A stretch of DNA of 64,000 nt from an uncultured Gemmatimonadales bacterium (GTDB taxonomy: Bacteria; Gemmatimonadota; Gemmatimonadetes; Gemmatimonadales; Gemmatimonadaceae), in assembly GCA_963851265.1 (NCBI GenBank), contig CAWKNZ010000002.1:352001-416000 (forward strand). The letters run 5' to 3'. The notes beneath the pieces are model-generated. The model ran no database searches. It was not told the DNA's origin and saw only the letters and a list, made by a program, of their open reading frames with translations. Positions 1 to 64,000 of this stretch are shown piece by piece. A program made the position numbers and the translations under genes. Each line of letters begins with the position of its first letter. Position 1 is the stretch's first letter.

Positions 1-1198
1 CGGCGTCTCGACCTCGCTCGAGACGGTGAGCGCGCTCGGCGTCGGCGGCTGGCTGTCGGTGGTCGCGCAGCCGCGCCTGACGTGGACCGCCGCGCCGGGC
101 CACGCTCCCGTCGGCCCGGCGGGCAGCCGCGTGACGCTCGTGCCGCAGCGCCTGTACGTCCGCGCCGTGGTGGCGAACGTCGCCCTGGAGGCCGGCGTCG
201 ACGAGCGCGTTTGGGGGCAGGCGCCGCTCGGCCCGGGGATGCCGGGTGGCACGCTCGTATCGGCCAACGCGCCGCCGCTGCACGCGGTCTCGGTCGGATC
301 GGACACGGCGTTTTCGCTGCCGTGGCTACTGCGCTACCTCGGGCGTGTGCGCGCCGAGTTGTTCGTCGCGGACCTCGGCGCGCGCGACCAGATCTTCCCG
401 CATTCGAAGCTCGCCGTCTACAAGGTCACGCTGAACCCGACGCCCAACGTGGAGCTCGGGGCCGGCATGATGGACGAGTTCGGCGGGAGGGGCGCGCCGC
501 CGCTCCCGTTCGCGAGCCGGGTGACGGACCTCTTCCCGTTCCTCACGTGGCTCAAGAAGGGCGCCGACAAGCAGGAGTCGAACAAGATCGCGCCGCTCGA
601 CGTGCGGGTGCGCGTGCCGGCCCTGCGGGGCGCGGAGGCGTACTGGGAGCTCTCGCTGGACGACTTCGACGCGCGCCGGCTGCGGAGCGTGCTGTGGCAG
701 GATTCCGGGCACCTGTTCGGCGTCTCGCTGCCGCGGCTGCGCGACGACGGCGCGCTCGCGCTCGACGCGTTCTACCAGCACACGTCGCTGCGCCTGTACG
801 AGCACGGCCAGTTCCAGTCGGGGGTCACGTACCGGGAGCAGATCATCGGCTCGCCGCTGGGGCCTAACGGGGAGGCGTTCACCGGCGCGCTCGCGTGGCG
901 CCCGACGCCCACGCGCACCGTCCGCCTGGTCCTGACGGGCGAGCGCCGCGACCCCAGCCCCTACACGACGACGACCGTCGACGGCACGCCCGCGGGCGCG
1001 TTGAAGTTCGTACAGCTCGCGCGGCTTCCGGTCGAGGGGCGTGCGCGCGCGCAGGTCGCGCTCGAGCAGGGGCTGCCCGGGCGCGGCCGGTTCGTGACGG
1101 CCCGAGTGGGCGCGGACCGCGTGACGAACGAGAACTTCGTCGCGGGACAGACGCGCGTCCGGCCGTTCGGCGAGGCCGCGGTGCGGTTCGGTTTCTAG
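1..1198 (+). CDS. Capsule assembly Wzi-family outer-membrane beta-barrel protein (5'-truncated by window edge)
   Basis: Frame is open back to the window start. Amphipathic beta-strand pattern, YREQIIGSPLGPNG motif typical of Wzi-like proteins, C-terminal Phe (VRFGF). Confidence 0.7.
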   Translation, partial: GVSTSLETVSALGVGGWLSVVAQPRLTWTAAPGHAPVGPAGSRVTLVPQRLYVRAVVANVALEAGVDERVWGQAPLGPGMPGGTLVSANAPPLHAVSVGSDTAFSLPWLLRYLGRVRAELFVADLGARDQIFPHSKLAVYKVTLNPTPNVELGAGMMDEFGGRGAPPLPFASRVTDLFPFLTWLKKGADKQESNKIAPLDVRVRVPALRGAEAYWELSLDDFDARRLRSVLWQDSGHLFGVSLPRLRDDGALALDAFYQHTSLRLYEHGQFQSGVTYREQIIGSPLGPNGEAFTGALAWRPTPTRTVRLVLTGERRDPSPYTTTTVDGTPAGALKFVQLARLPVEGRARAQVALEQGLPGRGRFVTARVGADRVTNENFVAGQTRVRPFGEAAVRFGF

Positions 1199-1245
1199 CG
1201 CCCGTATCGCGCGCGATTAGCTTAGACCGCCCCCGCTCCCAACCG

Positions 1246-1929
1246 ATGGTGCCTCCTTCCTTCCGCGGCCGCGCGGCCGCGCGCGCGGCCGCCCTCCTCC
1301 TGCTGACCGCGTGCGCCGGACAGACGCGCGTCGCCACGCGGCCGACCGTCGCGCCGGGGCCGCGCGTCGACGTGCCGGGCGTCGGGGAGCCGAAGGTCGC
1401 CGCCGGGACCGCCGTCGTCACCGAGGACGACCTCGCGTACCTCCGCGAACGCGAGCTGCTCGTCCCCGTGGCCGGCGCCCGCGCGGCGCGCATCGCGGGC
1501 AGCTTCGACGAGGACCGGAGCGGCGGGCGCGTGCACCACGCCACCGACATCCTCGCCCCGCGCGGCACGCCGGTGCTCGCCGCGGACGAGGGGCGCGTGT
1601 GGAAGATGCGCCCCAATGCGTTAGGCGGCATCACGATCTACGCCGTCGACCCGCTCGAGCGCTTCGTGTACTACTACGCCCACCTCGACCACTACCGCGA
1701 CGGCCTCGTCGAGGGCGCGACGGTGCAGAAGGGGGACACGCTCGGCTACGTCGGCACGACGGGCAACGCGCCGCCCGACGTGCCGCACCTCCACTTCCAG
1801 GTGGCGCGGCTCGGCGCGGACCGCCGCTACTGGGCGGGCACGCCCGTGGACGTGCTGCCGTTCCTGCGCGCGGCCGACGCCGCGCGGGCGAAGCGCGCCG
1901 CCGCGGGCGCGGTCACGGCGATTCGTTAG
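1246..1929 (+). CDS. M23 family metallopeptidase, probable lipoprotein
   Basis: HHATD (HxxxD), YYYAHL and PHLHF motifs. Lipobox-like LLLTAC after ATG 1246. Confidence 0.9.
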   Translation: MVPPSFRGRAAARAAALLLLTACAGQTRVATRPTVAPGPRVDVPGVGEPKVAAGTAVVTEDDLAYLRERELLVPVAGARAARIAGSFDEDRSGGRVHHATDILAPRGTPVLAADEGRVWKMRPNALGGITIYAVDPLERFVYYYAHLDHYRDGLVEGATVQKGDTLGYVGTTGNAPPDVPHLHFQVARLGADRRYWAGTPVDVLPFLRAADAARAKRAAAGAVTAIR

Positions 1930-1939
1930 GCAATGCGAA

Positions 1940-1971
1940 GCGGGGGGCGGCCGTCACCGGCCGCCCCCCGC
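1940..1971. terminator. GC-rich hairpin between convergent genes, probable terminator
   Basis: Perfect 14-bp stem GCGGGGGGCGGCCG-TCAC-CGGCCGCCCCCCGC just after the M23 stop. U-tract is weak. Confidence 0.55.
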
Positions 1972-2147: not shown

Positions 2148-3635
2148 TCAGAAGCGGAGCGCCAGGTACCGGTACGACGCCGTGTATTCCTGGTTGAACT
2201 GCTTGGGACCGTACAGCCACGCGCCGTTGACCCCGCCGGCGAACACGGCGTCCGCCTTGTCGTAGTAGCTCGCGTCGCCGGTCTGCCTGGCGATGAACGC
2301 GTACCCCGACGAGATGAGGTTGTTGAGGTCTGCCGCGCCCGGCGCGCCCCCCGACTCGCTCGATATCGAGCAGGCACCCTCGATGTACGTGAACGCCGAC
2401 GACGCGGTGAACCAGTCGTTCGCCCACATGTAGTCGACCGCGCGTTTGATCGACGCGACGACGCGAGGGTCGGGCTGCACCTGCGTGTAGTAGCGGATGA
2501 GCGCGTCGTTCAGCATGCCCACCATGTACGGCTTGTTGTACCCGCACTGGTGGTAGTACGGGTACGACCCGCTGCTGTCCTGGCCGGCGACGATCCGCCC
2601 GACCAGGTCCTGCATGATCGCGCGGTAGTCGTACCCCGCGGGGCTCTTCACGCCAAGCAGGTATGCGTCGATGATCGCGTTGAGGACGCGCGCGGAGTTG
2701 CGCGAGTCGCCGTCGCTGGTGCTCGTGGGCGCCACCCCGGCGGTGTAGTTCCAGTAGCCGTGCGGGTTCGCCATGTAGTCCGCGACGAAGGCCACGGTGT
2801 TCGCCGACGTCGTGTCGTGCGTGACCAGCGCGTGCAGCGCCACGCCGTCGAGCATCATCCGGTACGACTGCGGATAGTACGGCAGCGTCAGCACGTCGGC
2901 GGTCGGGTTCGCGGGGTCCGGCCCGGTCTTGCCGGCCAGGTAGTCGCGCGTGACGAGGGCCAGCTTGTTGGCGCGGTCGAGGTACGTCGCGTTGCCCGTG
3001 CGCGCCCACCACACGTAGTAGATCATCGCGCGGTCGTAGAAGTTCGCACCCTGAGGCGACGTGCTGTCGATCTGCCAGTGGTAGTCGGCGAGCTTCGCGA
3101 AGTCCGCCTCGTACCGCGCGAACGCGCCGCCCATGGCCTGCACGGCCGCGACGCTCGGCACGTTCGCCGCACCCATGTAGGCGAGGACCGCGGCCGGGGT
3201 CGCGGTGGCCGGCGCGGGCGGCGCGGCGGCGGGGCGTCCGGCGGCCGCGGCGACCACGACGTGCACGCTGTCGACCACGGCGTGCGCCTGCACCGCGCGC
3301 AACGTGGCCGCCCCCGGGGCGACCGCGCGCGCGAATCCGTTAGGCATCACGGCCGCGACCGCCGAGTCGGACGTCGTCCACGTCACGGGGCCGTTCGCCG
3401 CGGGGGTCGTCCGCGTCACGGCGAGCAGGATCGAGTCCCGCACGGCGACCGTGTCGGTCTTCACGGCGACGGCCCCGTTCGCGGGTTGGACGGCCGGCGT
3501 CGTCGCGGGTGGAGCGTCGGGAGCCGTCACGGCGCGGTCCTGACACGCGGCGGACGCGAGGGCGATCGAGAGAAACCAGGCGGTGCCACGAGCGCGGGCG
3601 ATGCCGCGGCGCGCGGCGGCCGGAGAGGCCTGCAT
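2148..3635 (-). CDS. Secreted lipoprotein with Ig-like (Big_2-type) domain and aromatic-rich alpha/alpha-toroid-like C-terminal domain (possible glycan-active enzyme)
   Basis: Signal/lipobox-like LASAAC. VTWTTSDSAVAAV..G.ARAVAPG.ATL is a Big_2 pattern. Pro/Ala linker, then helical repeats such as WARTGNATYLDRA and ARQTGDASYYDKA. Confidence 0.65.
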   Translation of the reverse strand: MQASPAAARRGIARARGTAWFLSIALASAACQDRAVTAPDAPPATTPAVQPANGAVAVKTDTVAVRDSILLAVTRTTPAANGPVTWTTSDSAVAAVMPNGFARAVAPGAATLRAVQAHAVVDSVHVVVAAAAGRPAAAPPAPATATPAAVLAYMGAANVPSVAAVQAMGGAFARYEADFAKLADYHWQIDSTSPQGANFYDRAMIYYVWWARTGNATYLDRANKLALVTRDYLAGKTGPDPANPTADVLTLPYYPQSYRMMLDGVALHALVTHDTTSANTVAFVADYMANPHGYWNYTAGVAPTSTSDGDSRNSARVLNAIIDAYLLGVKSPAGYDYRAIMQDLVGRIVAGQDSSGSYPYYHQCGYNKPYMVGMLNDALIRYYTQVQPDPRVVASIKRAVDYMWANDWFTASSAFTYIEGACSISSESGGAPGAADLNNLISSGYAFIARQTGDASYYDKADAVFAGGVNGAWLYGPKQFNQEYTASYRYLALRF

Positions 3636-3656
3636 GAGGCGGGAGCGTGACGAGGT

Positions 3657-4919: not shown

Positions 4920-7900
4920 TTACCAGCCCGGCGCGAGTTGGAAGCCGACCACGTTCGGCTTGTCCGGACGCTGGAACGCGTGGGCGTAGAACACTTCGAC
5001 GACCGCGAAGCCGAGCAGGTTGATGCGGGTCGAGACACCCGTGCTCGCGATCGGGATGTTGCGCGTCGCATTTCGCGCCGCGTCGCCCGTGAGGAACTTG
5101 AGTTCGGGGCTATTCAGCCCGCTCCACGCGACGCCCGCGTCGACGAACGGGACGAGGTCGACGGGCAGGATGTTGGTGTTGATGAGCCCGAGGCCGGCCG
5201 GCGCGAGCAGGGGGATGCGGAATTCCGCGCTCGCCACGGCGATGCGGTTGCCAAACAGTCGCGCGAGGGCCGGGCATCCGCTGTAGGACGTGGCGTTCCC
5301 GCACTCGCCCGCCAGGTTGTTGCTGCTCAGCAGGTCGTAGCCACGAACCAGGCTGGGGAGGCCGACGTAGTACGGCTGCGACGGGCTGAATTCGCCATAG
5401 CCGTTGAACAGGCTGTCGAGGTTCGTGCCCTGGTTCGAGTTGCCGCCGTAGCGCCCGATGTGCAGCCCGCGGAAGGCGAACGTGACCGGCCGCATGTACA
5501 GGTACTGCCGGTAGTCAGCCGTGATCGCGGTGTAGTGCAGGTCGCCGAAGCTCGGCGCGACTTCCAGACGGTAGCGAGCGCCGGCAATGGGCGACGTCAG
5601 GCCGAAGGTGGAGTAGTCACCGACGAAGCCCGCGCTGAGCTGGGCGTAGTTGTAGGCCGGCGACAGTCCGGTCACGCGCCCGCTCGTCTGCCCGATCACG
5701 TAGCTCCCGCTCGGGTCGAGTTGCGTGGTGTACTGCCGGGCGCTCACGGTCTGGCGCGTGAGGCCGGCCGTGAACTCGAAGCGCTGCGTCGAGTTGAGCG
5801 GGTACTGCGTGATGCCGTAGACGAAGTCCTGCGTGACGCGGCCGATGTACTGGGTGTAGTTGATGTTGCCCTGCGCGTCGTACGCCGCGCCGGCCACGCC
5901 GAAGGGAATCGGCACGTGCCCGATGCCGCCGCCGAAGTTCCAGCGGTACTTGCTGTTGATGTACTGCACCTGGCCGCCGATGTCGGCGAGCTGGCCTTGT
6001 GCCTGCACGACGGCGGCGAGGTTCTGGTTGCCGAGCTGGTCGCTGAAGAAGGCCGCGACCCCGCCGCTCACGCCCGTGCCGAAGTACGAGTTGTAGCCGA
6101 CGCCCACGGTGGGCGGGGCGACGTAGTCGAGCGAGATGCGCGGCACGAGCTTGGTGTGCGCGAACGTGGTGTCGGCGCGCGGCAGACCGTTGCCGGCGTC
6201 GGCGAGGTAGCCTTCGATCGCGCTCGAGCGGCCGGGGGTGGCGGGCGGAAGCACTCCCCCCGCGCCCGCGGCGGTCGCGTCGGCGACACCGACGGCGGTC
6301 GTCGCACTCGCGGCCGCCGAGATGGCGTTGTTAGGCGCGGTGGCGGCCGTGCCCGAGCTCACGATGGCGTTGGTGGTGCCGCCGGTCGCGCTACCGCTGG
6401 CCGCCACGGCGGGCGCGGCGGTGGTGGCCGGCACGGGCGTCCCCTGCGCCTCACTCGCCTCGAGGCGTACGATGTCATAGCCGCCGCGGTCGAAGACGGA
6501 GAACATCACGCGGCCCGTCTGCCGCGCGACCGAGATGGCGGGCGAGAGGTTGGTGATGCCCGCGACGCCGGTGGCGCTGCGCGTGAGCCGGTAGCGCTGC
6601 CCGCTCGCGAGATCCTGGCGGTACAGGTCCGAGAAGCCGTCCGGGTCGGCCACGTAGTAGATGGACCGGCCGTCGGGGGCGAACTGCGGATTGATGTGCC
6701 GCGCGCCGGGGAAGCCGTCGAGCACGCGCAGTTGCCGCGTGTCGAGGTCGAAGATCCCGATGCGGGTCGGCGCGAAGGTCATGCGCTCGAAGTCCGTTCC
6801 CGGGCCCTGGTCGGTGACGAAGGCGAGCGTGCGGCCGTCGGGGCTCCACGCCGGCTGGAGCTGGGCGTAACGGTCGTTGGTCAGCCGCGTCACGCGGTCC
6901 GACGCGAGGTCGTACGTGTAGAGGTCGGAGATCCCGCCGACCTGGCCGACGAAGGCGAGCGTGCGGCCGTCGGGGCTCCACGACGGGTCGAGCGCGGCGC
7001 CGATACCCGGTGTCTTGAGCGTGCGTTCCGTCTTGCGACGCAGCACGTCGTAGACCTGGATCACCTGGTTCCCCTGCTCGTAGACGACGTACGCGAAGCG
7101 GCGGCCGTCGGGGCTCCACGTGCCGGCGGAGTTGACGAACGAGAGCGCGTCGAAGTGCCGGGGCGAGTTCAGTGACCCGAGCTGCGCGGTGACCTTCCCG
7201 GTCTCCGCATCGGCGAGGTAGATCTCGATGCTGAACAGCCCGCGGCTCGAGTAGAAGGCGACCGTGCGCCCGTCGGGGCTCACCGTGGGGCCGATGTTGT
7301 ACTCGCCGCCGCGCTTGGTGCGCTGGAGGATGATCGGCTTGGCCGTGCCGTCAGGGGGCGTGCGTCCGGCGATGAGCGGCAGGTACGCGCCCTGGATCGA
7401 CGCCTTCCAGTCCTTCGAGAGCTGGTCGGTCGAGACGTCGAGCGTGCGCCGGATGGCGCCCTCGAAGCCGTAGCGCAGCGCGGCACGGTAGACGTCGACG
7501 ACGGCCTGATCGCCGTAGCGGCCGCCCACGTACGCCCACAGCGCCTGCCCGTAGCGGTACGGGAAGTAGCGCGGGTCGTTGGTCAGCTGCTTGATGGTCG
7601 GCACGTCGTTGCGGCGCGCGGCGTCGCGCAGCCACATCGCGGTGTTCACGTCCGAGCGGCCGAGCGAGAGGTACTCCGCCATGCCCTCGATGAGCCAGAG
7701 GGGGAGCGTGTTGAGCCCCTGCTGCGCGCCCGGGGTGGCGTTGGCAATGTCGTACTGGAAGACGTGCACCAGCTCGTGGCCGAGCACGTGGTTGTTGTCC
7801 GCGTACACGCCCGTGAAGGGCATGATGACGCGCTGGCGGAAGCTCTCGGTGACGCCGCCCGTACCTTCGCTCTCGATGTCGGTGATGTTGTTCTGCTGGA

Positions 7901-14215: not shown

Positions 14216-15775
14216 TTACCCGCGGTGCGTCGCCGAGTGCCCGTGGGCGCTCTTCGACGCGGAAGCTTTGCTCTTGGCGCTCGACTCGTGCGAGGCGTGC
14301 GACGATTTGTGGGACGCGGCGTGGGACCCGTGACTCGAGACGTTCGTCGAACCCTTCGCGTGCTTCGCGCCGTGTTTCGCGCTGGCGGATTCGTGGTGCG
14401 ACTTGCTGCCGTGGTGCGACCGGCTGCTCGCGTGGCGTGAGGTGGCGCGTTCGGGCGCGCGGTTCCAGCCAGTCTCGTCGTCCGCTCGGAAGCTCGCGGG
14501 CATGTCGCGCACGCCGCGCGGGTCGTCGAGCACGGCGAGTTCGGCGGCGTCGGCGAGGTCGGCGCGCACGTCGGCGATCACCTTGGCCGGGCGGCGGGCG
14601 CGCGCCTCGTGCACCCGGTTGGTGAGCAGCACGACGAACATGTTGCGGTCGGGGTCCATCCAGAGCGACGTGCCGGTGAACCCGGTGTGGCCGAACGCGG
14701 TCTCGCCCATGAGCGAGCCGCAGGACCCGCTCGTGCTGCCGCCCAGGCAGGTGTCCCAGCCGAGGGCCCGGGACCCGGCCTCGCGGTGGGTGAAGAGGCG
14801 GACGGTGCTGTCGGCGAAAACGCGGACGCCGGCGTAGGTGCCGCCGTTGAGCAGGGTCTGCGCGAAGATGGAGAGGTCGGCGGCCGAGCTGAAGAGCCCC
14901 GCGTGCCCGGCGACGCCGCCTAACGCGTACGCGTTCTCGTCGTGCACCTCGCCGCGCAGCGGGTAGCCGCGGGGGGGGGCGACTTCGGTGGGTGCGATCC
15001 GGTTGCGCAGCGGCGCGGGGGGGCGGAAGTACGTGTCGTTCATGCCCAACGGTCCGTAGACGCGCTGCGCGAGGAAGGCGTCGAGGCGCTGGCCGCTCAC
15101 GGCCTCGACGACGAAGCCGAGCATGTCGGCGCCGAGGTCGGAGTACTCGTAGCAGACGCCCGGCGCGCAGCCGAGCGGCGTCTCGATGACGATGCGGCGC
15201 GCCTCGGCGGGCGAGGAGGCGAGGCGCCAGAGGTCACGCCCTGCGGGCAGGCCGGAGCGGTGCAGAAGCAGGTGGCGGACGGTGACGCGGTCCTTGGCGC
15301 CGCCCGAGAACGCGGGGACGTAGGTGCGCACCGGCGCGTCGAGGTCGATCTTGCCCTCGTCGTAGAGCACCATGATGGCCGACGTGGTGCCGACGACCTT
15401 GGTGAGCGAGGCGAGGTCGTAGATCGAGTGCTCGTCGGCCGGCGGGCTGTCCGCGGTCCACCCGAGGTGGCCGTAGCCGCGTTTGACGACGGAATACCCG
15501 CCGCGCCCCACGACCACCGCCGCGCCGGGATAGCCGCCCGCGCTGATGCCGCTGAGCACGACGCGGTCGACTGCGGCGAGGCGTTCGGCCGACATCCCGA
15601 CGGTGGTCGGGCTGCGCAGCGGGAGGCCGTCCGAGAGCGGGGCGGTGAGCGCCGCGAATGCGCGCACGACGCCGGGCGCGGCCGTACGGAGCGCGCCGGC
15701 GGCGTCGCCCGCGAGCGCGCCAGACGTGCCGAGCACCGCGAGCGCGGCGGCGGTGACGAGGGGCCTGAACGACAC
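14216..15775 (-). CDS. Serine hydrolase, beta-lactamase class C/AmpC-like family, with S/H/K-rich C-terminal tail
   Basis: LASLTK (SxxK), YEYSD, LLLHRSGL, GHAGLFS, FGHTGFTG. GTG 15775 preceded by AGGAG. Confidence 0.88.
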   Translation of the reverse strand: MSFRPLVTAAALAVLGTSGALAGDAAGALRTAAPGVVRAFAALTAPLSDGLPLRSPTTVGMSAERLAAVDRVVLSGISAGGYPGAAVVVGRGGYSVVKRGYGHLGWTADSPPADEHSIYDLASLTKVVGTTSAIMVLYDEGKIDLDAPVRTYVPAFSGGAKDRVTVRHLLLHRSGLPAGRDLWRLASSPAEARRIVIETPLGCAPGVCYEYSDLGADMLGFVVEAVSGQRLDAFLAQRVYGPLGMNDTYFRPPAPLRNRIAPTEVAPPRGYPLRGEVHDENAYALGGVAGHAGLFSSAADLSIFAQTLLNGGTYAGVRVFADSTVRLFTHREAGSRALGWDTCLGGSTSGSCGSLMGETAFGHTGFTGTSLWMDPDRNMFVVLLTNRVHEARARRPAKVIADVRADLADAAELAVLDDPRGVRDMPASFRADDETGWNRAPERATSRHASSRSHHGSKSHHESASAKHGAKHAKGSTNVSSHGSHAASHKSSHASHESSAKSKASASKSAHGHSATHRG

Positions 15776-22263: not shown

Positions 22264-24384
<2,121 letters not shown>

Positions 24385-24820: not shown

Positions 24821-24917
24821 CGCTGATGCCGGGGCGGGCGGAGCCGCTGCGCGTCTCCTCGCTGCGATCGAGCGCGCCTGCGAGGGCGCCCGCCGCCCGC
24901 CGGCTCAGGGGTGCGTG

Positions 24918-27843: not shown

Positions 27844-27846
27844 GGC

Positions 27847-52300: not shown

Positions 52301-55300
52301 ATGACGTCCCCGACACTCGCGCGCGAGCCGGACGCTCGCCCCCTCCAACGCTGGAACCTGATCCGCGCCGCGCTCGCGAACCGGCAGCTCGTCTACGTGC
52401 TCACGGCGCTCGTCGTCATCTTCGGCCTCACCTCGCTCGTTCGCATGCCGCGGCGGGAGGACCCGAAGATCACGATCCGCCAGGGCCTCGTCCTCGCCCT
52501 CTATCCCGGAGCCACGGCCGAGCAGGTCGAGCGGCAGGTGGCCGAGCCGGTCGAGCGGCGGCTGTTCGCGCACGGCGAGGTGAAGAAGGCCAAGACGTAC
52601 ACCACGAGCCGCCCCGGCGCGCTCGTCGCCAACGTCGAGCTCAACGACGACGTGCGCGACCCCGAGCGCTTCTGGTCCACGCTGCGCCTCGACCTCAACG
52701 AGACGCGCGCGCAGGAGCTCCCGGCCGGCGTCGTCGGCCCGATCGTCAACGCCGATTTCGGTGACGTGGTCGCGGTGCTACTCACCGTGCACGGCCCACC
52801 GGGCCGCTACGGCTCGCGCGAGCTGGCGACCTTCCTCGACCGCATCGAGGACGCGGTGCGCACGCTTCCCGACGTCTCCAAGATCAAGCGCTACGGCGAG
52901 CAGCCCGAGGAGATCGCCGTCACCGCGCGCCCGGAGCGCCTCGCCCAGTACGGCGTCACGACGTCGCAGCTGTTAGGCGCCCTCCGCGCGCGCAACGCGG
53001 TCGTCGACGGCGGCTCGGTCGACGCCGGCGCGAGCGACGTGCGCATCCGCCCCGCTGGGCCGTTCAACACCGTGCAGGAGGTGGGCGCGGTGCAGGTGGC
53101 CGCGGGGCCGCGCGCCGAGCCGGTCAGGCTCGGCGACCTGGCCGCGGTCGAGCGCCGCTACGCCGACCCGACGTTCCTCGCGCGCGTCGACGACCAGCCG
53201 GTCGCGCTCATGTCGATCGAGGCGCAGGAAGGGCGCAACCTCGTCGACGTCGGCCGGCAGATCGACGCCAGGCTCGCCGCGGTGCGCGCGCAGCTACCGC
53301 CCGACCTCGCGATCGACCTCGTCGCCGACCAGCCCGCGGGCGTGCAGCACCGCGTGCTGGGCTTCGGTCGCGAGTTCACGATCGCCGTCGTCTCGGTGGT
53401 GCTCGTGACGGTGCTGCTCCTCCCGCTCCGCGTCGCCGCCATCGCGGCCACCGCAATCCCGATCACCGTCGCCGTGACCGTCGCCGCGCTCAACGCGCTC
53501 GGCATCGAGCTGCACCAGATGAGCTTCGCCGGACTCGTCGTCGCGTTGGGCATGGTGGTCGACGACGCGATCGTGATCGCCGACAACTACGTCGAGCTGC
53601 TCGACCACGGCGTCGCGCGCGACGAGGCGGCGTGGCGATCGGCCAGCGACCTCGCGCTCCCGGTGCTCGGCGCGACGCTCACGATCGTCGCGAGCTTCCT
53701 CCCGCTCGCGATCCTGCTCCCCGGCACGGTGGGCGAGTTCATCCGCGCGCTGCCGCTCACGGTGAGCGTCGCGCTGCTCTGCTCGTACGTCGTCGCGATG
53801 CTGCTCACGCCGCTGCTCTGCCTGGCGTTCATCACGACCGGACTGCGGCCGCACGTGGGGGCCGCCGCGACGCCCCGCCGCTTCGACCCGCTCGGCCTGA
53901 TGCAGCGCCTGTACGAGCGCACGATGCGCCTGGCGCTCCCGCGCAAGCGGACCACGCTCGCACTGAGCGTGCTCGCGTTCGTCGCCGGCGTGGTGATGCT
54001 GAAGCTCATCCCAATGCGCTTCTTCCCCGCCGCGGAGCGCGCGCAGTTCGTCGTCGACGTGTGGACGCCCGAGGGCACGCGCTTCGAAGCGACCGATTCG
54101 GTGGTGCAGCGCCTCGTGGCGAGCGTGCGACGCGTCGACGGCGTGCGCGCGGTGGGCTCGTTCACCGGCGGCGGCTCGCCGCGCTTCTACTACAACATCA
54201 ACCCCGAGCCGCCCGCGACCAACTACGGCCAGCTCGTCGTCAACACCGCCGGCACCGACGAGACCCCGATCGTCGCGGCGTCGCTCCACGCGCGCCTCGC
54301 CGCACTCGCCCCGGAAGCGACGGTGATGGTGAAGGAGCTGCAGCAGGGCCCCGCGCTCAAGGCGCCGATCGAGATTCGCTTCGCTGGTGCCGACCTCGCC
54401 ACGCTGCGCCGCCTCGGCGACTCGGCGCGCGCGGTGCTCGCATCCACGCCCGGCAGCGAGTACACCACCACCGACTGGGGCGAGGACCGCTACGGCGTGC
54501 GCGTCGACCTGCGCCGCGAGACGGCGGCGCGGTTGGGCGTCACCGACGCCGACGTCGCCCAGCAGCTCGCCGGCGGCTTCGACGGCGCCGTCGCGTCGAC
54601 CTATTACGAGGGCGACCGGCGGATCGAGGTGCGCCTGCGCCTCGACTCCGCCAGCCGACGCGGCGTCGGCGACGTCCGCGACGCCTACGTCACCGCGCCC
54701 GCGACGGGCGCGCGCCTGCCGCTCCGCGAGGTGGCGGAGGTGCGCCCCGAGTGGCAGCCGAGCCGCATCGTCCGGCGCAACGGCGTGCGGACCATCACCG
54801 TGTCGACCTTCGCGCGCCCCGGCGTGCTCGCCTCGACCGTGCTCACGGCCGCGCTCCCGCGACTCCGCGCCATCGCGCTGCCCGCAGGCGCCACGATGGC
54901 GTTGGGCGGCGAGATCGAGAACCAGGGCGAGGTGCAGGGGCCGATGAGCGTCGCGCTGTCGACGAGTCTGCTCGGGATCTTCCTCATCCTCTTCCTCCAG
55001 TTCCGCAACGCGCGCTACCCGCTCATCGTCATGGTCTCCATCCCGCTCGCCGTCTTCGGCTCGGCGTTGGGCCTCGTGCTCACGCGCAACCCGTTCGGCT
55101 TCACCGCGCAGCTCGGGCTCACCGCGCTCACGGGCGTCGTCGTGCGCAACGCGATCATCCTCGTCGACTACATCATCGCGCGCCGCGAAGAGGGCGAGTC
55201 GCTCGAGGACGCCGCGCTCGACGCCGGGCGGCGGCGGCTGCGGCCCATCTTCCTCACGACCGTGGCCGCGGCGGTCGGCGTGGTGCCGCTCATCGTGAGC

Positions 55301-57046
55301 GGGTCGAGCCTGTGGTCGCCGCTCGCCAGCGTGCTCGCGGTGGGGCTCGTCTGTTCGATGGTCTTCACGCTCGTCGTGGTGCCGGTGCTGTACGTGCTGG
55401 TCGAGTCGCGGCGCGAGCGGCGGCAGGCGCGCCGCGCGCACGGCACGGCCGCGGCGCCCGCCGCGCCGGGCGTCGCGCCCGAGCCGCTGCGGCGCGCGGC
55501 GTCGACGATCGCGCCGGGGCTGGGCTCGGGCGTGGGCTCGGCGCTCACCGCGATGGCGCTCGCGTGCCTCGCGCTCGGCGCGGCGCGCGTGCCGGCGTTA
55601 GGCGCGCAGGAGGTCGCCACGGAAACGCGCGCGGCACGCTCCCTCACGCTCGACGAGGCCGTGCGCCTCGCGACGTCCAACGGCCGCGCCGTGCGCATCG
55701 CGGCCGCGCAGGTGGACGAGCAGGCCGCGCGCGTGCGCGGCGCGCGTGCGGAGTTCCGGCCGTCGCTCGCGGTCACGGGCAACTATTCGGGGCGGAGCGG
55801 CGTGCAGAGCGTGCTCATCCCGCAGGGCGCGCTCGGGAACGACGTGAACGGCCGCCCGCTCCCCGGCGCGGACCGCAGCCTCACGTCGCCGAGCAAGAGC
55901 ACGTTCTACTCGATCGTGACCGCGACGCAGCCGCTGACCCAGGGCGTGCGCATCCGCGCCGGCGAGCGCGCGGCGGAGGCGGCGTACCGCCGGAGCGCCG
56001 CGTCGCGCGACGCGACGACCCAGGACGTCGCGCTCGCGGTCACGCGCCTCTACCTCGGCGCGCTCGCCGCCGAGCGGCAGCACGAGGCCGCGCGGCTGGT
56101 GCTCGCGGCGCGCCGGGCCGGCGCGGGCGACGCCACGCGCGCCGTGGCGGCCGGGCTCGCGCTCGGCACGCGGGCCACCGAGGCGCGCGCGGGGGTGCTC
56201 GACGCCGAGCAGCAGCTCGTCGCGGCCGGCAACCAGGTCGCGGACTACACGGCCGACCTCGCCGAGCTGGTCGGGTGGCCCGCCGACGTGCCGATGACGC
56301 TGGTCGCGCCCGCGCCGCCCGAACGGCGCACCGCGCCCGCCGGCCCCGCGCGGGCCGCCGCGCGCGCGACGGCGACCGGGCGCGAGGCGTTAGGCGCGTC
56401 GACGGCCGACGCGCCCGCGTCCGACGCGTTCGGCGACGCACTCGCGGCGGGGGACAGCGTGCGGCTCGCCGCGCTCGTCCGCACCGCGCTCGACGCGAAC
56501 CCCGAGCTGCGTGCAGCCCGCGCGACGCGCGACGAGGCCGCGAGCGGCGCCCGCGCCGCGCGTGCGGCCTACGTGCCCGAGGTCGCGCTCTACGCGCAGT
56601 ACTACCACCAGACGCTCACCACCGTGCTGCCGCACGACAACGTCACCGGCGGGCTGTCGTTGTCGTGGACGATCGCCGACTTCGGGCGGCGGCGGAGCCA
56701 GGTCGACGCGGCGGCCGCGCGGCAGGTCGCCGCGGGGGAGGAAGCGCGTCGCGCCGAGGAGCGCACGGCGACCGCGGTGGCCAAGGCGTACCGCGCCGTG
56801 CTGCGGGCCGAGCGGCTGTGGGACGCGGCGCAGGCGTCCGCGGCGGCGCGGCGCGACCTCGCCCGCGTGGCAACGGACGAGGGGGCTGCGGGGCTCCGGC
56901 TCGCGTCGTCCCGGGCGGAGCAGGATGCCGCGGCGGCGGTCGCGGACGCGGCGGCGTTCGCGGCAGAGGCGGGGACGCGGGTGGCGCGGGCGGAGTTGGC
57001 GCGGGCCGTGGGGGCCCAGCGTGGGGCGCCCCCTGAAGCTCCGTGA
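52301..57046 (+). CDS. RND efflux permease (AcrB/CusA family) fused to a C-terminal TolC-type outer-membrane factor
   Basis: ALGMVVDDAIV, VRNAIILVD, RLRPIFLTT in the first ~1035 aa. Then LTLDEAVRLA, NPEL, AAYVPEVAL, GLSLSWTIADFG (OEP repeats). One continuous ORF. Confidence 0.88.
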   Translation: MTSPTLAREPDARPLQRWNLIRAALANRQLVYVLTALVVIFGLTSLVRMPRREDPKITIRQGLVLALYPGATAEQVERQVAEPVERRLFAHGEVKKAKTYTTSRPGALVANVELNDDVRDPERFWSTLRLDLNETRAQELPAGVVGPIVNADFGDVVAVLLTVHGPPGRYGSRELATFLDRIEDAVRTLPDVSKIKRYGEQPEEIAVTARPERLAQYGVTTSQLLGALRARNAVVDGGSVDAGASDVRIRPAGPFNTVQEVGAVQVAAGPRAEPVRLGDLAAVERRYADPTFLARVDDQPVALMSIEAQEGRNLVDVGRQIDARLAAVRAQLPPDLAIDLVADQPAGVQHRVLGFGREFTIAVVSVVLVTVLLLPLRVAAIAATAIPITVAVTVAALNALGIELHQMSFAGLVVALGMVVDDAIVIADNYVELLDHGVARDEAAWRSASDLALPVLGATLTIVASFLPLAILLPGTVGEFIRALPLTVSVALLCSYVVAMLLTPLLCLAFITTGLRPHVGAAATPRRFDPLGLMQRLYERTMRLALPRKRTTLALSVLAFVAGVVMLKLIPMRFFPAAERAQFVVDVWTPEGTRFEATDSVVQRLVASVRRVDGVRAVGSFTGGGSPRFYYNINPEPPATNYGQLVVNTAGTDETPIVAASLHARLAALAPEATVMVKELQQGPALKAPIEIRFAGADLATLRRLGDSARAVLASTPGSEYTTTDWGEDRYGVRVDLRRETAARLGVTDADVAQQLAGGFDGAVASTYYEGDRRIEVRLRLDSASRRGVGDVRDAYVTAPATGARLPLREVAEVRPEWQPSRIVRRNGVRTITVSTFARPGVLASTVLTAALPRLRAIALPAGATMALGGEIENQGEVQGPMSVALSTSLLGIFLILFLQFRNARYPLIVMVSIPLAVFGSALGLVLTRNPFGFTAQLGLTALTGVVVRNAIILVDYIIARREEGESLEDAALDAGRRRLRPIFLTTVAAAVGVVPLIVSGSSLWSPLASVLAVGLVCSMVFTLVVVPVLYVLVESRRERRQARRAHGTAAAPAAPGVAPEPLRRAASTIAPGLGSGVGSALTAMALACLALGAARVPALGAQEVATETRAARSLTLDEAVRLATSNGRAVRIAAAQVDEQAARVRGARAEFRPSLAVTGNYSGRSGVQSVLIPQGALGNDVNGRPLPGADRSLTSPSKSTFYSIVTATQPLTQGVRIRAGERAAEAAYRRSAASRDATTQDVALAVTRLYLGALAAERQHEAARLVLAARRAGAGDATRAVAAGLALGTRATEARAGVLDAEQQLVAAGNQVADYTADLAELVGWPADVPMTLVAPAPPERRTAPAGPARAAARATATGREALGASTADAPASDAFGDALAAGDSVRLAALVRTALDANPELRAARATRDEAASGARAARAAYVPEVALYAQYYHQTLTTVLPHDNVTGGLSLSWTIADFGRRRSQVDAAAARQVAAGEEARRAEERTATAVAKAYRAVLRAERLWDAAQASAAARRDLARVATDEGAAGLRLASSRAEQDAAAAVADAAAFAAEAGTRVARAELARAVGAQRGAPPEAP

Positions 57047-57420
57047 ACGCCGCAGGGCACACGCCCCGCGACCTGGCGCATTCGGCACACGGCAGTTGCG
57101 CTCGTCGCATCCACCAGCTGGCCTTCCTCGTGGCGCCGCACGGTATCGCGCGGGTCGTCCGGGATCGGCCGACGGCGCTCCGCCGGGGCTGAACGGGCCC
57201 GCGCCCTGCCCGGCGGCGTGGCCGGGGGGATTACGTCGCGCGGAACGCATCGTCGGCCGGAGTGCCCGCGGCTGCTGCCGACCCGATGATTCACGTCGCA
57301 CTCGCGCTACAAGGGCTCAGCAGACGCGCCCTGCCCCCAAAGCTGCTCGCATCGGGTGACCGACGCCGGCACCGTGGGGTACACTTCGCCGTCACCCGCC
57401 GCCCCCGCTCCGCCCCCCCT

Positions 57421-58495
57421 ATGCCGGCCCTCCCCGAACGCGCCCTCGCCGACGCCGTTGCCCACCGCGACGCGCGCCGCTTCTGCGACGTGGTCCTCCC
57501 GGCCGTCTCGCGGACCTTCGCGATCGGCATCCGCGCGCTCCCGGGGGACCTCGGCAAGGCCGTCCTCACGGCCTACCTCATCTGCCGGCTCGCCGACACC
57601 GTCGAGGACGCGCCCGGCATGACGCCCGCCGCCAAGGCGCCGCTCTTCGAAGCGCTGCTCGACTGCTTCGACGGGCAGGCGGCCGCGGACCGCTTCCCGC
57701 CGATGGCGCATGCCGTCACCGGCGACCCGGCGCACCTCGCGCTCGTCCGCCACGCGGACCTCGTCTTCGGCTACTTCCTCACGCTGCCCGCGGGGACGCG
57801 CCGCGTCGTGCGCCACTGGGTGACCGAGATGGTCACCGGCATGCGCAAGTTCGTCGAGCTCTACCCCGACGGCATCCGCATCCAGACGGTCGAGGAGTTT
57901 CGCGAGTACTGCTACTACGTGGCGGGCACGGTGGGCTACCTGCTCACCGACCTCTGGCACGAGCACTCGCCCGCGGTGGGCCAGGTCACGTACGAGCGGC
58001 TGCGCGAACGGTGCCGCGCGTTCGGCGAGGCGCTGCAGACGGTGAACATCCTCAAGGACGTGGGGCACGACGCCCGCGTCGAGAACTCGATCTACGTGCC
58101 CGAGCAACTCCTCCGCGCCCACGGCAGCACGCACGCGGCCGTGCTCGCGGCCGAGTGCATCCCCGAGACGCGGGCGGCCGTCGGGTCGGCTCATCGAGCT
58201 CGCCTGGGCCGACCTCGACGAGGCGCGCCGCTACCTGCTGCTCATCCCGCGGCGCGCGGTGCCGATCCGCCTCTTCTGCGCGCTGCCCTTGTTCTACGCC
58301 TACGCCACGCTGCGCGACCTCGCCCGCACCTCGGCGATGCTCCTGCCCGGCGGCGGGGTGAAGATCTCGCGGCGCGAGGTCAAGGCGCTGCTCGTGACGG
58401 GGATGCTCGTCGTCGGCAGCAACGGCCTCGTGCGCCGGCTCGTCGAGCGCGTGCGGCAACGGCCGTTCACGCTCGCGTTAGGCGGGAGCCGGTAG
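57421..58495 (+). pseudogene. Squalene/phytoene synthase family gene with a +1 frameshift near 58183-58186 (pseudogene or sequencing error)
   Basis: VSRTF, YLICRLADTVED, YCYYVAGTVG, LQTVNILKD in frame from 57421. The homologous C-terminus (RLIELAWADLDEARRYLL...IRLFCALPL...VKISR) is in the next frame, ending at 58495. Confidence 0.8.
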
Positions 58496-58509
58496 GCGAG
58501 GCACCGCGC

Positions 58510-59385
58510 TCAGCGCAGCGCCCGCCGCACCCCGTCGATCGCGTCGAGCAGTCCGGCCGCACGCTCTCCCGGGCGTGAGGATGCGGCCGGCCCGGCGAGC
58601 CCCCCCTCGACGCGGTCGAGCAGCGCTTCCAGCGCCGCGCCGCCGCGCGCCACCGCGTCGCGGTGCCCGCGCGCGATCACCCACGCCGCGGCGCCGCCCG
58701 CGAGCACCGGAACCGCCGCGACCGGCGCGACCACCGCGAGCAGTGCGTGCGCGACGACCCCCGCGCCGAGCATCCCCGTCCCCGCGAGCACGCCGCCACC
58801 CGCCGCCACCCCGCCCGCGGTGAGCCGCTGCCGGCGTGCGCCGCCGAGGTCGAGCTCCAGCCGCAGCAGCGTCCGCCCGGTGTCGGCGGGCAGCGCCACC
58901 GCGCGCACGCCGCGCGCGCGCCGCAGCCCCGGCGTGCCGCCGCCCAGTCGCAGCCCGCGTGTCAGATTCCCGACGAAGTCCGTGCGCGCGTCCCACGCCG
59001 CGTAGACCGCCCCCGCGTCGGCCGTCCGCCGCACGAGCTGCATGCACTCCTCGCGCTCGAGCCAGCGGCCCAACGCCTCGATCACCGCGCCCGGCGTCCC
59101 CGCCACCGCGCGCGCCGCCGCCGCGTGCGCCGGCCCCGCGATCCGCGTCGCGAGGTCGCCCTCGCCCGCGTCGCGCCCCGTCGGCACCACGGCGCGCGTC
59201 GCCGACCGCAACCGCTCCTCGGCGAGCGCCGCGCGCACGTGGTCGGTCGACAGCCCGGCCTCGCGCGCCGCGTCGAGCAGTTCGGCGTCGCTCAGCCCCG
59301 CGTCGTCGGGCGCGCGCCCCGCGGCGGTCTGCAGCTCCGCCGCCCGCGCGAGCACGCGCTCCATCGCCGTCCGGTCGAGGGCCAT
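58510..59385 (-). CDS. Hypothetical membrane protein
   Basis: N-terminal ERVLARAAELQ...ELLDAAREAGL helical motif, two C-terminal hydrophobic segments. 2-nt gap to the upstream gene. Confidence 0.7.
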   Translation of the reverse strand: MALDRTAMERVLARAAELQTAAGRAPDDAGLSDAELLDAAREAGLSTDHVRAALAEERLRSATRAVVPTGRDAGEGDLATRIAGPAHAAAARAVAGTPGAVIEALGRWLEREECMQLVRRTADAGAVYAAWDARTDFVGNLTRGLRLGGGTPGLRRARGVRAVALPADTGRTLLRLELDLGGARRQRLTAGGVAAGGGVLAGTGMLGAGVVAHALLAVVAPVAAVPVLAGGAAAWVIARGHRDAVARGGAALEALLDRVEGGLAGPAASSRPGERAAGLLDAIDGVRRALR

Positions 59386-59387
59386 CG

Positions 59388-61040: not shown

Positions 61041-61068
61041 GAGCGGAGGGGAAAGAATGAGGGAGACG

Positions 61069-62003: not shown

Positions 62004-62016
62004 CCGGGAACGATAC

Positions 62017-63201
62017 TCACCCGCACCAGTCGCGCACCAAGCGCGCGAGCACGTCGGTCGCGCGCTCCACCTCGTCGAGCCCGACCCACTCCTCCGCGCT
62101 GTGTGCGAGGCCGATGTCGCCCGGCCCGAAACACACCGTCGGCACCCCGGCCGCGTTGAGCAGCGCGGCGTCCGTCCAGGCCGGCATCCCCTCCACGCGC
62201 ACCGCCTCCCCCGCCCCGGCGAGCGCCGTGCCTAACGCACGCACGATCGGCGCCCCGGGCGCGACGTCGCTCGGCGGCTGCGCGAAGTCGAGCGCGACGT
62301 CGGCGCGGAACGCCTCGCGCCCGGCGGCCCGCAGCCGCGCGGCGACGCGCGCCGCCGCCGCCTCGATCTCCGCGAGCGCCGACTCCGCGCTCTCCGACGG
62401 GATCGTCCGCCGCTCGAGCCGGAGCACGCACCGCTCGGGGTAGGTCGTCAGGCCGACTCCCCCCTCTATGAGCGACGCGTGCAGCGACCCGCGGCCCAAC
62501 AGCGCGTGCGGTGCCCGCCCGGGCAGCTCGACGGCGTCGAGCGCGTCCAGCTCGGCGAGCACGAGCCCCGCGTGACGGATGGCGTCCACCCCGAGGTCAT
62601 AGCGGCTGCCGTGCGCGGCGCGACCGTGGAGGGTCACGGTGTACCACGCGAACCCGCGGTGCGCGGGCATGATCGCGAGGCGGGTGGGCTCGGTGATCAC
62701 GCACGCGTCGGCCCGCAGCGCGCCCGACTTCAGCCGCTCGACGAGGGCGAGGGTGCCGGCACTCTCGAACTCCTCGTCGGCGACCGCGGCGATCACGACC
62801 TCGCCGCGGACGGCCCCGTCGGCGTGCGCCCTCGCCGCGGCCGCGCACATCGCCGCGATACCGGCCTTCATGTCGGCCGCCCCGCGCCCGTACAGCCGTC
62901 CGTCGCGCACCTCCGCCGCGAACGGCTCGTGCACCATCCCGTCGGTTCCCACCACGTCGAGGTGCCCGTTCAGCATGAGCACCGGAGCGCCCGGCTCGCC
63001 CCGCCCGATGCGGGCGACCACGTTGGGCCGCCCGGGCACGGCGTCGTACAGGTCGACCGCGAAGCCCCACGCGCGCAGGACGGCGGCCAGGCGTGCGGCG
63101 CACGCGCCCTCCCCCGGCGCCCCCGGCACGAGGTCGGGGTTCCGCGAGTCGATGCGGACGAGTTCGCGGGAAAGCGCGGAAGGGTCGGCGAAGGCGGGCA
63201 T
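62017..63201 (-). CDS. ArgE/DapE-family M20 deacylase
   Basis: LNGHLDVV, GRGAADMKAG, ADEE, TEPT, GRAAHGS, FGPG...AHSAEE. Confidence 0.9.
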   Translation of the reverse strand: MPAFADPSALSRELVRIDSRNPDLVPGAPGEGACAARLAAVLRAWGFAVDLYDAVPGRPNVVARIGRGEPGAPVLMLNGHLDVVGTDGMVHEPFAAEVRDGRLYGRGAADMKAGIAAMCAAAARAHADGAVRGEVVIAAVADEEFESAGTLALVERLKSGALRADACVITEPTRLAIMPAHRGFAWYTVTLHGRAAHGSRYDLGVDAIRHAGLVLAELDALDAVELPGRAPHALLGRGSLHASLIEGGVGLTTYPERCVLRLERRTIPSESAESALAEIEAAAARVAARLRAAGREAFRADVALDFAQPPSDVAPGAPIVRALGTALAGAGEAVRVEGMPAWTDAALLNAAGVPTVCFGPGDIGLAHSAEEWVGLDEVERATDVLARLVRDWCG

Positions 63202-63257
63202 CCCGGGAAGGTAGGCGGCACCGCCGTCTCCGTCCCCGTCAGACGTCGCCTACGCCG

Positions 63258-64000
63258 TCACCCGACCCCCTCGCCCTCCACGCCCCACTCCAGCACTCGC
63301 CCCAACGGTTCCACGGCCGCCCGCACGTCCTCCTCCCGCCCCTCCGCAGCGACGAGCAGCACGCACCCCCCGCCCGACGCCCCCAACGCCTTCGCGCCTA
63401 ACGCCCCGGCCTTGTCGCCCGCGGCCACGATCGCGTCGATCCGCGCCGTCGGGATCGCCGGGTGCAGTCCGCGCTGCCACCCCCAGTGTTCGCCCACCAG
63501 AGTGCCTAACGTGTCGACGTCGCCGCGGGCCAGCGCCGCGGCCATCGCCGCGGCCAGCCCGCGCATCCGGGCGAGCGCGTCGACCACCCGGCGCTCTCCC
63601 GCCGCGTACCCGTCGAGCACCGCCGTGATCGTTTCCCCCGACACGCGCGACTCGCCCGTGTAGACCACCACGCACCGACCTTCGAGCGCGCGCCGCGTGT
63701 GGGCGCGCAGCGGAAGCCGCGTCACCTGCGCCGGTCGACCGTCCGCCGCCGCGCCGAAGTCCAGCCGCAGCGCCCCGCCGAACGCCGCCGCGTAGTGGTC
63801 CTGCCGCCCGCCCGCGATCCCCGCGTCCTCGACCTCCGCCGCGCGGCTCGCCTCGGCGAGCGCGGCCCGCGTCGCGTCGTCCAGCGGCGTGCGGCTCGCT
63901 CGGCGTTCTCCGCCTGCGGTCAGATCCCGCCACGCCGCGCACGCCGCCGCGAGCGCGACGCCGAGCGCGCTCGACCCTCCGAGCCCGGCGCCGACGGGCA
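63258..64000 (-). CDS. GHMP-family sugar kinase (HddA/fucokinase-like), 5'-truncated by window edge
   Basis: Frame is open to the window end: PVGAGLGGSSA, GGRQDHYAAAFGG, YTGESR, GAKALGASGGG. Confidence 0.88.
   Translation of the reverse strand, partial: PVGAGLGGSSALGVALAAACAAWRDLTAGGERRASRTPLDDATRAALAEASRAAEVEDAGIAGGRQDHYAAAFGGALRLDFGAAADGRPAQVTRLPLRAHTRRALEGRCVVVYTGESRVSGETITAVLDGYAAGERRVVDALARMRGLAAAMAAALARGDVDTLGTLVGEHWGWQRGLHPAIPTARIDAIVAAGDKAGALGAKALGASGGGCVLLVAAEGREEDVRAAVEPLGRVLEWGVEGEGVG

Follow-up and report, generated by a model that had tools for sequence, protein, structure and literature searches.

A seven-letter DNA word, GTTAGGC, mostly preceded by a pyrimidine, pervades the genome of an uncultured Gemmatimonadales bacterium of the family Gemmatimonadaceae (G000 below; 4.60 Mb in 12 contigs, 73% GC), and the force that maintains it acts on the DNA duplex, regardless of reading frame, transcription or replication direction. 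The word was noticed in a stretch of 64 kb, G000:C2:352001-416000, which is referred to here as the window. An initial annotation of the window had listed 31 copies of YGTTAGGC, and every coordinate and strand of that list matches: GTTAGGC occurs 31 times on the two strands together, as compared to a mean of 2.58 (sd 1.42, maximum 6) in 100 dinucleotide-preserving shuffles, none of which reaches 31. As described there, the base 5' of the word is always a pyrimidine (25 C, 6 T, neither A nor G), and most copies, 21 of the 31, read as sense xxG-TTA-GGC (x-Leu-Gly) when reading frames are taken from crude gene calls based on the GC content of third codon positions. The remark that TTA is otherwise almost absent from these genes was nearly right: 19 of the 22 TTA codons in called genes wholly inside the window are part of the word; among the three others, at 18030, 35427 and 51052, only the one at 35427 had been spotted.

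The enrichment extends to the whole genome, in which GTTAGGC is present in 1762 copies (885 and 877 on the two strands), that is, about one per 2.6 kb, with densities ranging from 0.33 to 0.55/kb over the 12 contigs. Markov models of order 1 and order 3 predict 160 and 127 copies of this 7-mer, and 82 and 58 copies of the 8-mer CGTTAGGC; under these models, each of the two words ranks first for over-representation at its own length (14-24-fold). Markov z-scores of maximal order are uninformative, because the sub-words are themselves built from the motif, and the low orders were used instead. The base preceding the 1762 copies is C in 1396, T in 243, A in 54 and G in 69 cases (0.79 for C and 0.14 for T), and the base following them, at position +7, is G in 0.54, A in 0.22, C in 0.19 and T in 0.05 of the copies. 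No further conserved flanking position beyond -1 and +7 is found, neither in the 1762 copies nor in the 294 copies located in non-coding-like DNA, in which C or T is kept at -1 and T is avoided at +7. The word is Y-GTTAGGC-V, spanning nine positions with C preferred over T at the first and any base but T at the last, and it is no part of a longer repeat. Its specificity is sharp within these positions: after CG-TTA, GGC follows 1396 times in the genome, versus 13 times for GGG, 21 for GGT and 28 for GGA. Among the 24 8-mers with one mismatch, TGTTAGGC alone is strongly raised (11-26-fold); AGTTAGGC, GGTTAGGC and CGTTGGGC are raised up to 6.4-fold on one or both Markov models.

Inside genes, the word enters mainly by silent codon choice, with Leu written as TTA and Gly as GGC or, on the other strand, Pro as CCT and Asn as AAC. 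The 2901 genes were called crudely as open frames with high third-position GC and cover 56-80% of each contig, so that assignments to DNA outside genes are approximate. They hold 1151 copies. Of these, 887 are in the sense frame xxG-TTA-GGC and 29 in the sense frame GTT-AGG-C; among the antisense copies, 178 read xxG-CCT-AAC (Pro-Asn) and 57 read xGC-CTA-ACx. The 887 sense copies account for 78% of the 1130 TTA codons in called genes, so that TTA is not equally common in other contexts. The word is found in sense at 691 of the 3865 [Ala/Pro/Ser/Thr]-Leu-Gly sites (17.9%) and in antisense at 166 of the 1122 sites with Pro-Asn before a purine (14.8%); given these similar rates of conversion, the excess of sense copies arises because more suitable sites are on offer. 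Frames that require two rare codons are used less (57/1584 and 29/2985). When synonymous codons were shuffled, with the proteins and all TTA codons kept, 50.9 +/- 6.6 copies were obtained genome-wide (20 shuffles) and 66.2 +/- 7.5 within genes (20 shuffles), as compared to the 1151 observed, a 17-23-fold excess; the enrichment thus survives synonymous-codon shuffling, of a type that does not preserve codon pairs. The tripeptide ALG also exceeds its reversal GLA (2063 versus 1396).

Stop codons and the spacers just past gene ends are further routes of entry. Of 2898 called stop codons, 175 carry the word: 104 of the 346 TAA stops read GCC-TAA-C, and 71 of the 594 TAG stops read GT-TAG-GC. Along genes, copies are most numerous over the stop codon and within 40 nt past it, in both orientations, with a smaller peak in the 40 nt preceding gene starts, and the density in non-coding-like DNA (0.53/kb) is above that in coding DNA (0.36/kb). 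The suggestion that the word is kept up at the level of DNA rather than protein is borne out by the codon shuffles, the parity of sense and antisense conversion, the stop codons, the spacer density and the identical flanks of the non-coding copies. The cause would lie in translation or in the protein if a particular codon pair for Leu-Gly were favoured or if TTA served in control, as with bldA in Streptomyces, and the concentration of 887 of the 1151 coding copies in a single sense frame could be taken to point that way; a tRNA-Leu(UAA) gene is present in G000, and TTA is therefore readable. However, antisense, stop-codon and spacer copies are enriched equally or more, and the specificity reaches the third base of the neighbouring codon and the last C of GGC. 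A translation-level effect is refuted by the antisense and non-coding copies, and its probability is negligible.

The orientation of the word tracks the gene strand, and no replication-linked polarity is seen. The direction of the genes on contig C2 flips at ~0.8 and ~1.4 Mb, in the manner of an origin and a terminus; the GC skew is weak, and the replichores were inferred from gene orientation alone. Between 0.8 and 1.4 Mb, 79 sense and 15 antisense copies are found in genes on the + strand (358 kb), and 22 sense and 3 antisense copies in genes on the - strand (106 kb); the next stretch mirrors this pattern. Relative to their length, minority-strand genes have as many copies in their own sense as majority-strand genes (0.21 versus 0.22 per kb). 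These figures bear on the proposal, raised by the initial annotation among others, of a Chi-type site. Chi (GCTGGTGG in E. coli) and the FtsK-orienting polar sequences (KOPS) or architecture-imparting sequences (AIMS) are polar with respect to replication. A polar signal for recombinational repair or chromosome segregation would share with the word that it is an asymmetric, over-represented 8-mer, partly built from codons, at a density roughly like that of Chi, and the raw counts on C2 are skewed indeed (111 + versus 58 - at 800-1400 kb, 51 + versus 99 - at 1400-1830 kb). Gene strand, however, fully accounts for this skew, the ratio of sense to antisense copies is the same on both strands, and synonymous sites acquire the word about equally often in sense and in antisense. 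The lack of polarity beyond gene strand argues against a role like that of Chi or KOPS; the polar reading is already largely refuted and must be regarded as very improbable.

Comparison with congeners indicates rapid gain, retention and turnover. The region that surrounds the window has a syntenic counterpart in the genome G001, at ~82% identity; over 259 kb aligned, 43 of the 101 copies of G000 and 43 of the 145 copies of G001 are shared, and unshared sites are mostly matched in the other genome by Leu-Gly in synonymous codons (GCTGGGC, GTTGGGC or GCTCGGC). At conserved residues, TTA is retained between the two in 41 of 77 cases (53%), as compared to 5-15% for other rare codons (GGT 9.5%, CCT 10%, CTT 13%, CTA 9%) and 56% for the common CTG, a fivefold better retention than that of other rare codons; orthologous sites are conserved in this sense, though they turn over. 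Among G000, G001 and G004 (158 kb aligned), 26 sites are occupied in all three species, 52 in two and 95 in one. The sites occupied in two species are missing from G000 in 27, from G001 in 19 and from G004 in 6 cases; the single-species sites number 24, 38 and 33, respectively, with only 2, 2 and 1 for the control word GCTAGGC. New copies of the word therefore arise far faster than mutation alone would permit, and copies are kept beyond the expectation for their codons, yet with turnover. G000 seems to lose more copies and gain fewer than its congeners. Against the distant, word-rich G012, the 45 conserved Leu-Gly sites carry the word at 12 in G012, at 4 in G000 and at 3 in both, a sample too small for further reading.

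Among relatives, the word is an on/off trait by genus within one family of the Gemmatimonadota. Among the 31 relatives examined first, the five members of the own genus are all rich (727-2415 copies of the 8-mer, as compared to ~60-140 of the reversed control), as are several other genera (6360 copies in G012), and most genomes have 6-65 copies, well under the control. A family scan of 301 genomes from 77 genera of the Gemmatimonadaceae found six genera rich in every sampled member (g1, 5/5; g9, 7/7 with 4115-6360 copies; g62, 8/8; g69, 8/8 with up to 7821 copies in G203; g74, 7/7; g77, 7/7), two mostly rich (g55, 7/8; g56, 5/8 with 3244-4141 copies, the other three members having 66, 8 and 4) and about twenty further genera moderately rich. 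Word-poor throughout are g3, g11, g12, g24, g36-38, g54, g58-61, g80, g81 and others. In a scan of the phylum (251 genomes of at least 85% completeness from 12 families), the only genomes beyond the Gemmatimonadaceae to exceed the control are three of genus g110 (1.7-3.9-fold); in the first set of relatives, G030 of family f3 stands 2.3-fold over the control. The tallies take in the genomes flagged as unpublished, namely G011, G049, G050, G148, G263, G281, G309, G351, G378 and G447, and no conclusion hangs on any one of these. The core in G012 is CGTTAGG plus C, or at times T, at 1.26 per kb. The initial annotation knew of no described motif of this kind for the lineage, and this agrees with literature searches, which did not cover subscription journals and found no published description of the word; it is also not found in the main text of PMC4670013.

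The word is familiar from another context. The consensus of the integron core site is GTTRRRY, with RYYYAAC as the inverse core, according to the portions of PMC3053210 consulted, and GTTAGGC is an exact instance of the former. In G021, G019 and G029, co-oriented clusters of the word form textbook cassette arrays, in which GCCTAAC, an imperfect palindrome of 83-96 bp and GTTAGGC recur at intervals of 400-900 bp; the base before the R' copy is C and that before the complement of R'' is T, which matches the flanking pyrimidine of the dispersed word. By sequence, the word thus corresponds to the R box, i.e. the core site, of the attC recombination sites of integrons in this order, and this identity, flanking pyrimidine included, appears too exact to dismiss. 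In G000 itself, GCCTAAC...GTTAGGC pairs at 30-150 bp are found at ~9 loci (18 rows over both strands). An attC site is an imperfect palindrome R''-L''...L'-R' of 57-141 bp that folds into a hairpin, and ~5 of the loci look attC-like (C10:188936, C10:194558, C10:202950, C10:203674 and C6:1592). These attC sites adjoin toxin-antitoxin-like cassettes, insertion sequence (IS) elements and a split integrase gene, and they comprise fewer than 20 of the 1762 copies. No L box, partner or hairpin is seen beside the dispersed copies in the flanks of all 1762.

Two loci deserve mention as observations in their own right. At G000:C6:2954-6101, an integron integrase is split into N- and C-terminal parts by ~1.9 kb without a Pfam-recognised gene, with an attC site and a BrnT-type toxin cassette adjacent. 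G000:C10:186001-206000 holds scattered attC sites, paired small genes (BrnT-like, DUF4926/DUF6883, DUF5615/PIN) and three kinds of transposase, and looks like a cassette cluster without integrase that was broken by IS elements.

Because the word is the R box, whatever reads it would share its specificity with the integron system, and the integron integrase IntI is an obvious candidate: dispersed R boxes could be landing sites for cassettes, decoys that titrate IntI, or partners of attC sites for excising new cassettes. The word is identical to the R'' and R' boxes of the order, and IntI is common in it (over the family cut-off in 18 of the 31 genomes). Cassette open reading frames often end in R'', to which the 175 stop codons inside the word bear a likeness. 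The consulted parts of 10.1101/2022.09.11.507474 moreover describe IntI as able to insert cassettes at genomic double-stranded attG sites. Like attG, the word is a double-stranded genomic site containing GTT, and its positions 6-7 (C, then G or A) match the start of the CRGM motif; attG, however, requires no more than GWT, with CRGM in addition at hot spots, and no R box; nor is it described there as enriched by selection, in contrast to the word, all seven bases of which are fixed and strongly enriched (10.1101/2022.09.11.507474, in the parts consulted). The agreement with the attC core is closer, with seven bases exact and the same form in the arrays of the order and in the attC sites of G000; unlike attC, the dispersed word consists of single boxes without L box or hairpin, mostly in ordinary genes, with only ~9 attC-like pairs in the genome, and its abundance is independent of the integrase. 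IntI is present in many word-poor genomes, and in several word-rich ones it is split (G000), a stop-bearing fragment (G001), frameshifted (G012, with 6360 copies) or not found (G002, G008 and G018). Insertions at coding copies would also do harm. The integrase as driver was rejected, since its presence does not track the word and G001, with a fragment only, has the most lineage-specific sites (38). Probably, IntI itself is not the reader, and a function of the dispersed copies that is tied to the integron appears improbable.

DNA modification or biased repair, converting near-matches or protecting matches in the manner of HIP1 (highly iterated palindrome 1) or Vsr, could leave such a word as a by-product. 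HIP1 (GCGATCGC) is a hyper-abundant cyanobacterial octamer that is imposed on coding DNA, conserved between species, palindromic and linked to a methyltransferase. The present word is likewise a hyper-abundant octamer in coding DNA that is kept between species; unlike HIP1, it is asymmetric and has no matching methyltransferase among those found. Its gains run via transitions, CTG to TTG to TTA, and GTTGGGC is the most frequent or second most frequent alternative state at unshared sites (10/58 and 20/102), as conversion of near-matches would produce. Searches of G000, which is 94% complete, gave no match to PF01555, PF00145, PF02086 or Vsr, and two PF02384 loci are frameshifted. An intact gene for a methyltransferase-like protein of 1141 aa of the Eco57I/MmeI type, a class that reads asymmetric words of 6-7 bp, is located at G000:C7:582089-585511 on the - strand; it is, however, present in 63 of 65 family genomes at ~50% identity, word-rich and word-poor alike. 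Known repair biases, furthermore, have roughly twofold effects, as compared to 14-24-fold here. The methyltransferase and Vsr candidates were rejected, as none tracks the word trait, and the HIP1-like or modification class named by the initial annotation is weakly disfavoured, the word being no palindrome and none of the four common methyltransferase families or Vsr being found; as an explanation, it is judged quite unlikely. The conservation of the Eco57I/MmeI-type gene is unusual for a gene of restriction-modification type, and many of its matches carry a single in-frame stop.

Presumably, then, a sequence-specific protein reads the word. The best model at present, to be held tentatively, is that of a self tag resembling the uptake sequences of naturally competent bacteria, which accumulates by biased uptake and recombination. 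A competence receptor at the surface or in the periplasm would prefer DNA fragments bearing the word; alleles that gain a copy would be taken up and recombined more often; and copies would build up by molecular drive until costs in codons and proteins offset the gain. A single copy per fragment would suffice, and this would account for the scarcity of closely spaced copies: only 78 pairs lie within 300 bp, as compared to 191 expected from an exponential distribution (ratio 0.41), whereas 40 control 7-mers of similar abundance have ratios of 0.94-1.77. The avoidance is also seen in G001 and G012, at shorter range. Many traits are shared with the uptake signal sequence (USS; core AAGTGCGGT) of the Pasteurellaceae and the DNA uptake sequence (DUS; GCCGTCTGAA) of the Neisseriaceae, as these are characterized in the consulted parts of PMC1939737 and PMC2817400: a short, asymmetric, hyper-abundant word on both strands at ~1 per 1-3 kb; use of the least costly frames within genes and a higher density in non-coding DNA; no polarity with respect to replication and a spacing more even than chance; enrichment of the encoded tripeptide, and some inverted pairs that form hairpins; and confinement to one family. 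Unlike USS and DUS, the word has no enriched one-mismatch cloud, no dialects are seen, and it is switched on or off by genus within the family; it is, moreover, written with an otherwise near-forbidden codon in a genome of 73% GC and coincides with the integron core.

Several observations weigh against an uptake tag. Known uptake sequences are surrounded by a cloud of one-off forms (PMC1939737, in the parts consulted), whereas here one-mismatch variants are not enriched, save T for C at -1 and CGTTGGGC (2.2-fold). No dialects were seen, and no hyper-abundant word is found in six word-poor genera (~75-100 kb each); it would be unusual for an uptake tag to stay the same across some 30 genera. 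G000 encodes ComEC, ComEA-like HHH_3 proteins, DprA and PilQ-like secretins, but ComEC is present in 61 of 63 and a PilQ-like secretin in 64 of 64 genomes, word-rich and word-poor alike, and such family-wide genes give no account of the on/off pattern. The literature search found no paper on competence in this phylum. DNA without a counterpart in G001 is only mildly poorer in the word (0.375/kb versus 0.471/kb in aligned DNA), so that foreign genes do not clearly stand out as lacking the tag. Finally, the one region depleted beyond chance is core DNA that is word-poor in three species, which fits a role inside the cell at least as well.

This region, G000:C1:182876-227962, is the sole gap beyond chance and contains no copy in 45 kb despite 55 [Ala/Pro/Ser/Thr]-Leu-Gly sites. 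It comprises parA, parB, mnmE and other core genes, with a third-position GC of 0.909 (flanks, 0.94) and a sequence identity to congeners of no more than 74-79%. The orthologous block is word-poor in G001 (4 copies over 44 kb) and in G004 (5 over 38 kb) as well, where the flanks carry ~1 per kb. A foreign island was considered and rejected, since these are core genes at typical GC content; lower local recombination or exclusion of a bound protein fits the desert. More generally, the density of the word climbs with the third-position GC of genes from 0.17 to 0.53/kb, rises mildly with conservation (rho 0.32, p = 0.013) and correlates block by block between species (rho 0.55).

An intracellular DNA-binding protein with a chromosome-wide role, in the nucleoid, in segregation or occlusion, in the targeting of repair or as a self mark in defence, could be served by the same sites; its DNA-reading surface may be of the tyrosine-recombinase type that recognises R boxes, with a small selective value for each copy. 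Such a site would agree with the sharp specificity at nine positions without a cloud of one-off forms, with the constancy over ~30 genera, with the mutual exclusion within ~300 bp, as a footprint or phasing would give, with the parA/parB-mnmE desert, which extends to G001 and G004 in spite of flanks at ~1 per kb, and with the correlated block densities. No candidate protein, however, tracks the trait; 95 of the 173 sites are found in a single species, which argues against a strong function of each site; and half of the family lives without the word. An intracellular role is accordingly considered possible but rather unlikely.

A bolder variant of the uptake model joins it to the R-box identity: an uptake or recombination DNA receptor with R-box specificity, present in ~30 genera of the Gemmatimonadaceae, might prefer DNA of attC cassettes, the genomic copies being its footprint and a self mark. 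This is a speculative proposal, which is more probably wrong than right by a wide measure. If it were true, natural transformation would be tied to cassette traffic, in which cassettes offer two copies of the word per ~500 bp, and the word would be the first tag of the uptake type beyond the Proteobacteria; to our knowledge, only two families, both proteobacterial, have so far been found to tag self DNA by sequence. Irrespective of the mechanism, the same statistical signature as that of uptake tags is met here in a soil phylum that is abundant and little studied, at up to 7821 copies per genome. The presence or absence by genus, with both states in g56, amounts to a natural experiment for locating the reader protein, and the coincidence with the integron crossover core makes a link of DNA uptake or recognition to cassette traffic testable. 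The concentration of TTA codons in the word matters for gene prediction and codon models, and the word may be used as a cheap binning marker for these genomes.

Within the window, the copies in the sense frame mostly follow Ala, as in GCG-TTA-GGC at 1620..1626(+) in gene 1246-1929(+). Ala-Leu-Gly is further encoded at 14918..14924(-) in gene 14216-15895(-), 18592..18598(-) in 17989-18849(-), 25488..25494(-) in 24918-25727(-), 26903..26909(-) in 25742-26998(-), 35024..35030(+) in 34188-35549(+), 41877..41883(-) in 41562-44363(-), 48780..48786(-) in 47877-49577(-), 55597..55603(+) and 56389..56395(+) in 52301-57046(+), 62230..62236(-) in 62017-63201(-) and 63396..63402(-) in 63258-64283(-), a gene that extends past the window. 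Pro-Leu-Gly is found at 19501..19507(-) in gene 18976-20901(-) and 44822..44828(+) in 44310-46436(+), and Thr-Leu-Gly at 27313..27319(-) in 26998-27843(-), 49290..49296(-) in 47877-49577(-) and 63504..63510(-) in 63258-64283(-). The sense copies with T at -1 encode Val-Leu-Gly at 29505..29511(-) in gene 29418-30377(-), 32698..32704(-) in 32479-34068(-) and 46187..46193(+) in 44310-46436(+), and Leu-Leu-Gly at 52972..52978(+) in 52301-57046(+).

Three copies are antisense as Pro-Asn (CCT-AAC), at 3339..3345(+) in gene 2148-3689(-), at 6330..6336(+), with T at -1, in 4920-8222(-) and at 35468..35474(-) in 34188-35549(+). The initial annotation had counted 862 in this group, too; this copy, at 862..868(-) with C at -1, lies beyond the gene calls and is ambiguous, as it can be read as the TAA end of frame 1..867(+) or as Pro-Asn in 2..1198(+). 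Its reading of 23834..23840(+) as antisense Gly-Leu(CTA)-Thr, GGC-CTA-ACG, in gene 22264-24384(-) was correct, as was the placement of three copies over stop codons: 1925..1931(+) covers the called TAG stop (CGT-TAG-GC) of gene 1246-1929(+), 24917..24923(+), with T at -1, the called TAA stop (GCC-TAA-C) of gene 24918-25727(-), and 27845..27851(-), beyond the gene calls, the TAG end of the open frame 27847..30417(-). The two other copies beyond the gene calls are 29170..29176(-) and 58477..58483(+), the latter of which reads as Val-Arg (GTT-AGG) in 57262..58578(+) or as the TAA end of 58478..59047(-). The GC skew of the window turns from positive to negative near 48 kb, an approximate position.

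Some minor observations concern copies and words elsewhere. A few very close inverted pairs of the word form perfect hairpins; GC-rich hairpin stems hold such pairs at G000 C2:11211, C7:601246, C7:567607, C8:177681 and C2:116118, which are terminator-like, like the paired DUS of Neisseria. They had been considered as dif-like core sites, which was rejected, the pairs being plain hairpins. In G005, which is without CGTTAGGC, TCGTCTAT is weakly over-represented in the first 20 kb of each of contigs C1-C5 (12 copies versus 0.9 expected in 100 kb) and could be a faint word of its own. G001:C5:1-400000 contains a second hyper-abundant word, GTTTCAATC, in ~53 copies, which is probably an array of clustered regularly interspaced short palindromic repeats (CRISPR) or a tandem repeat.

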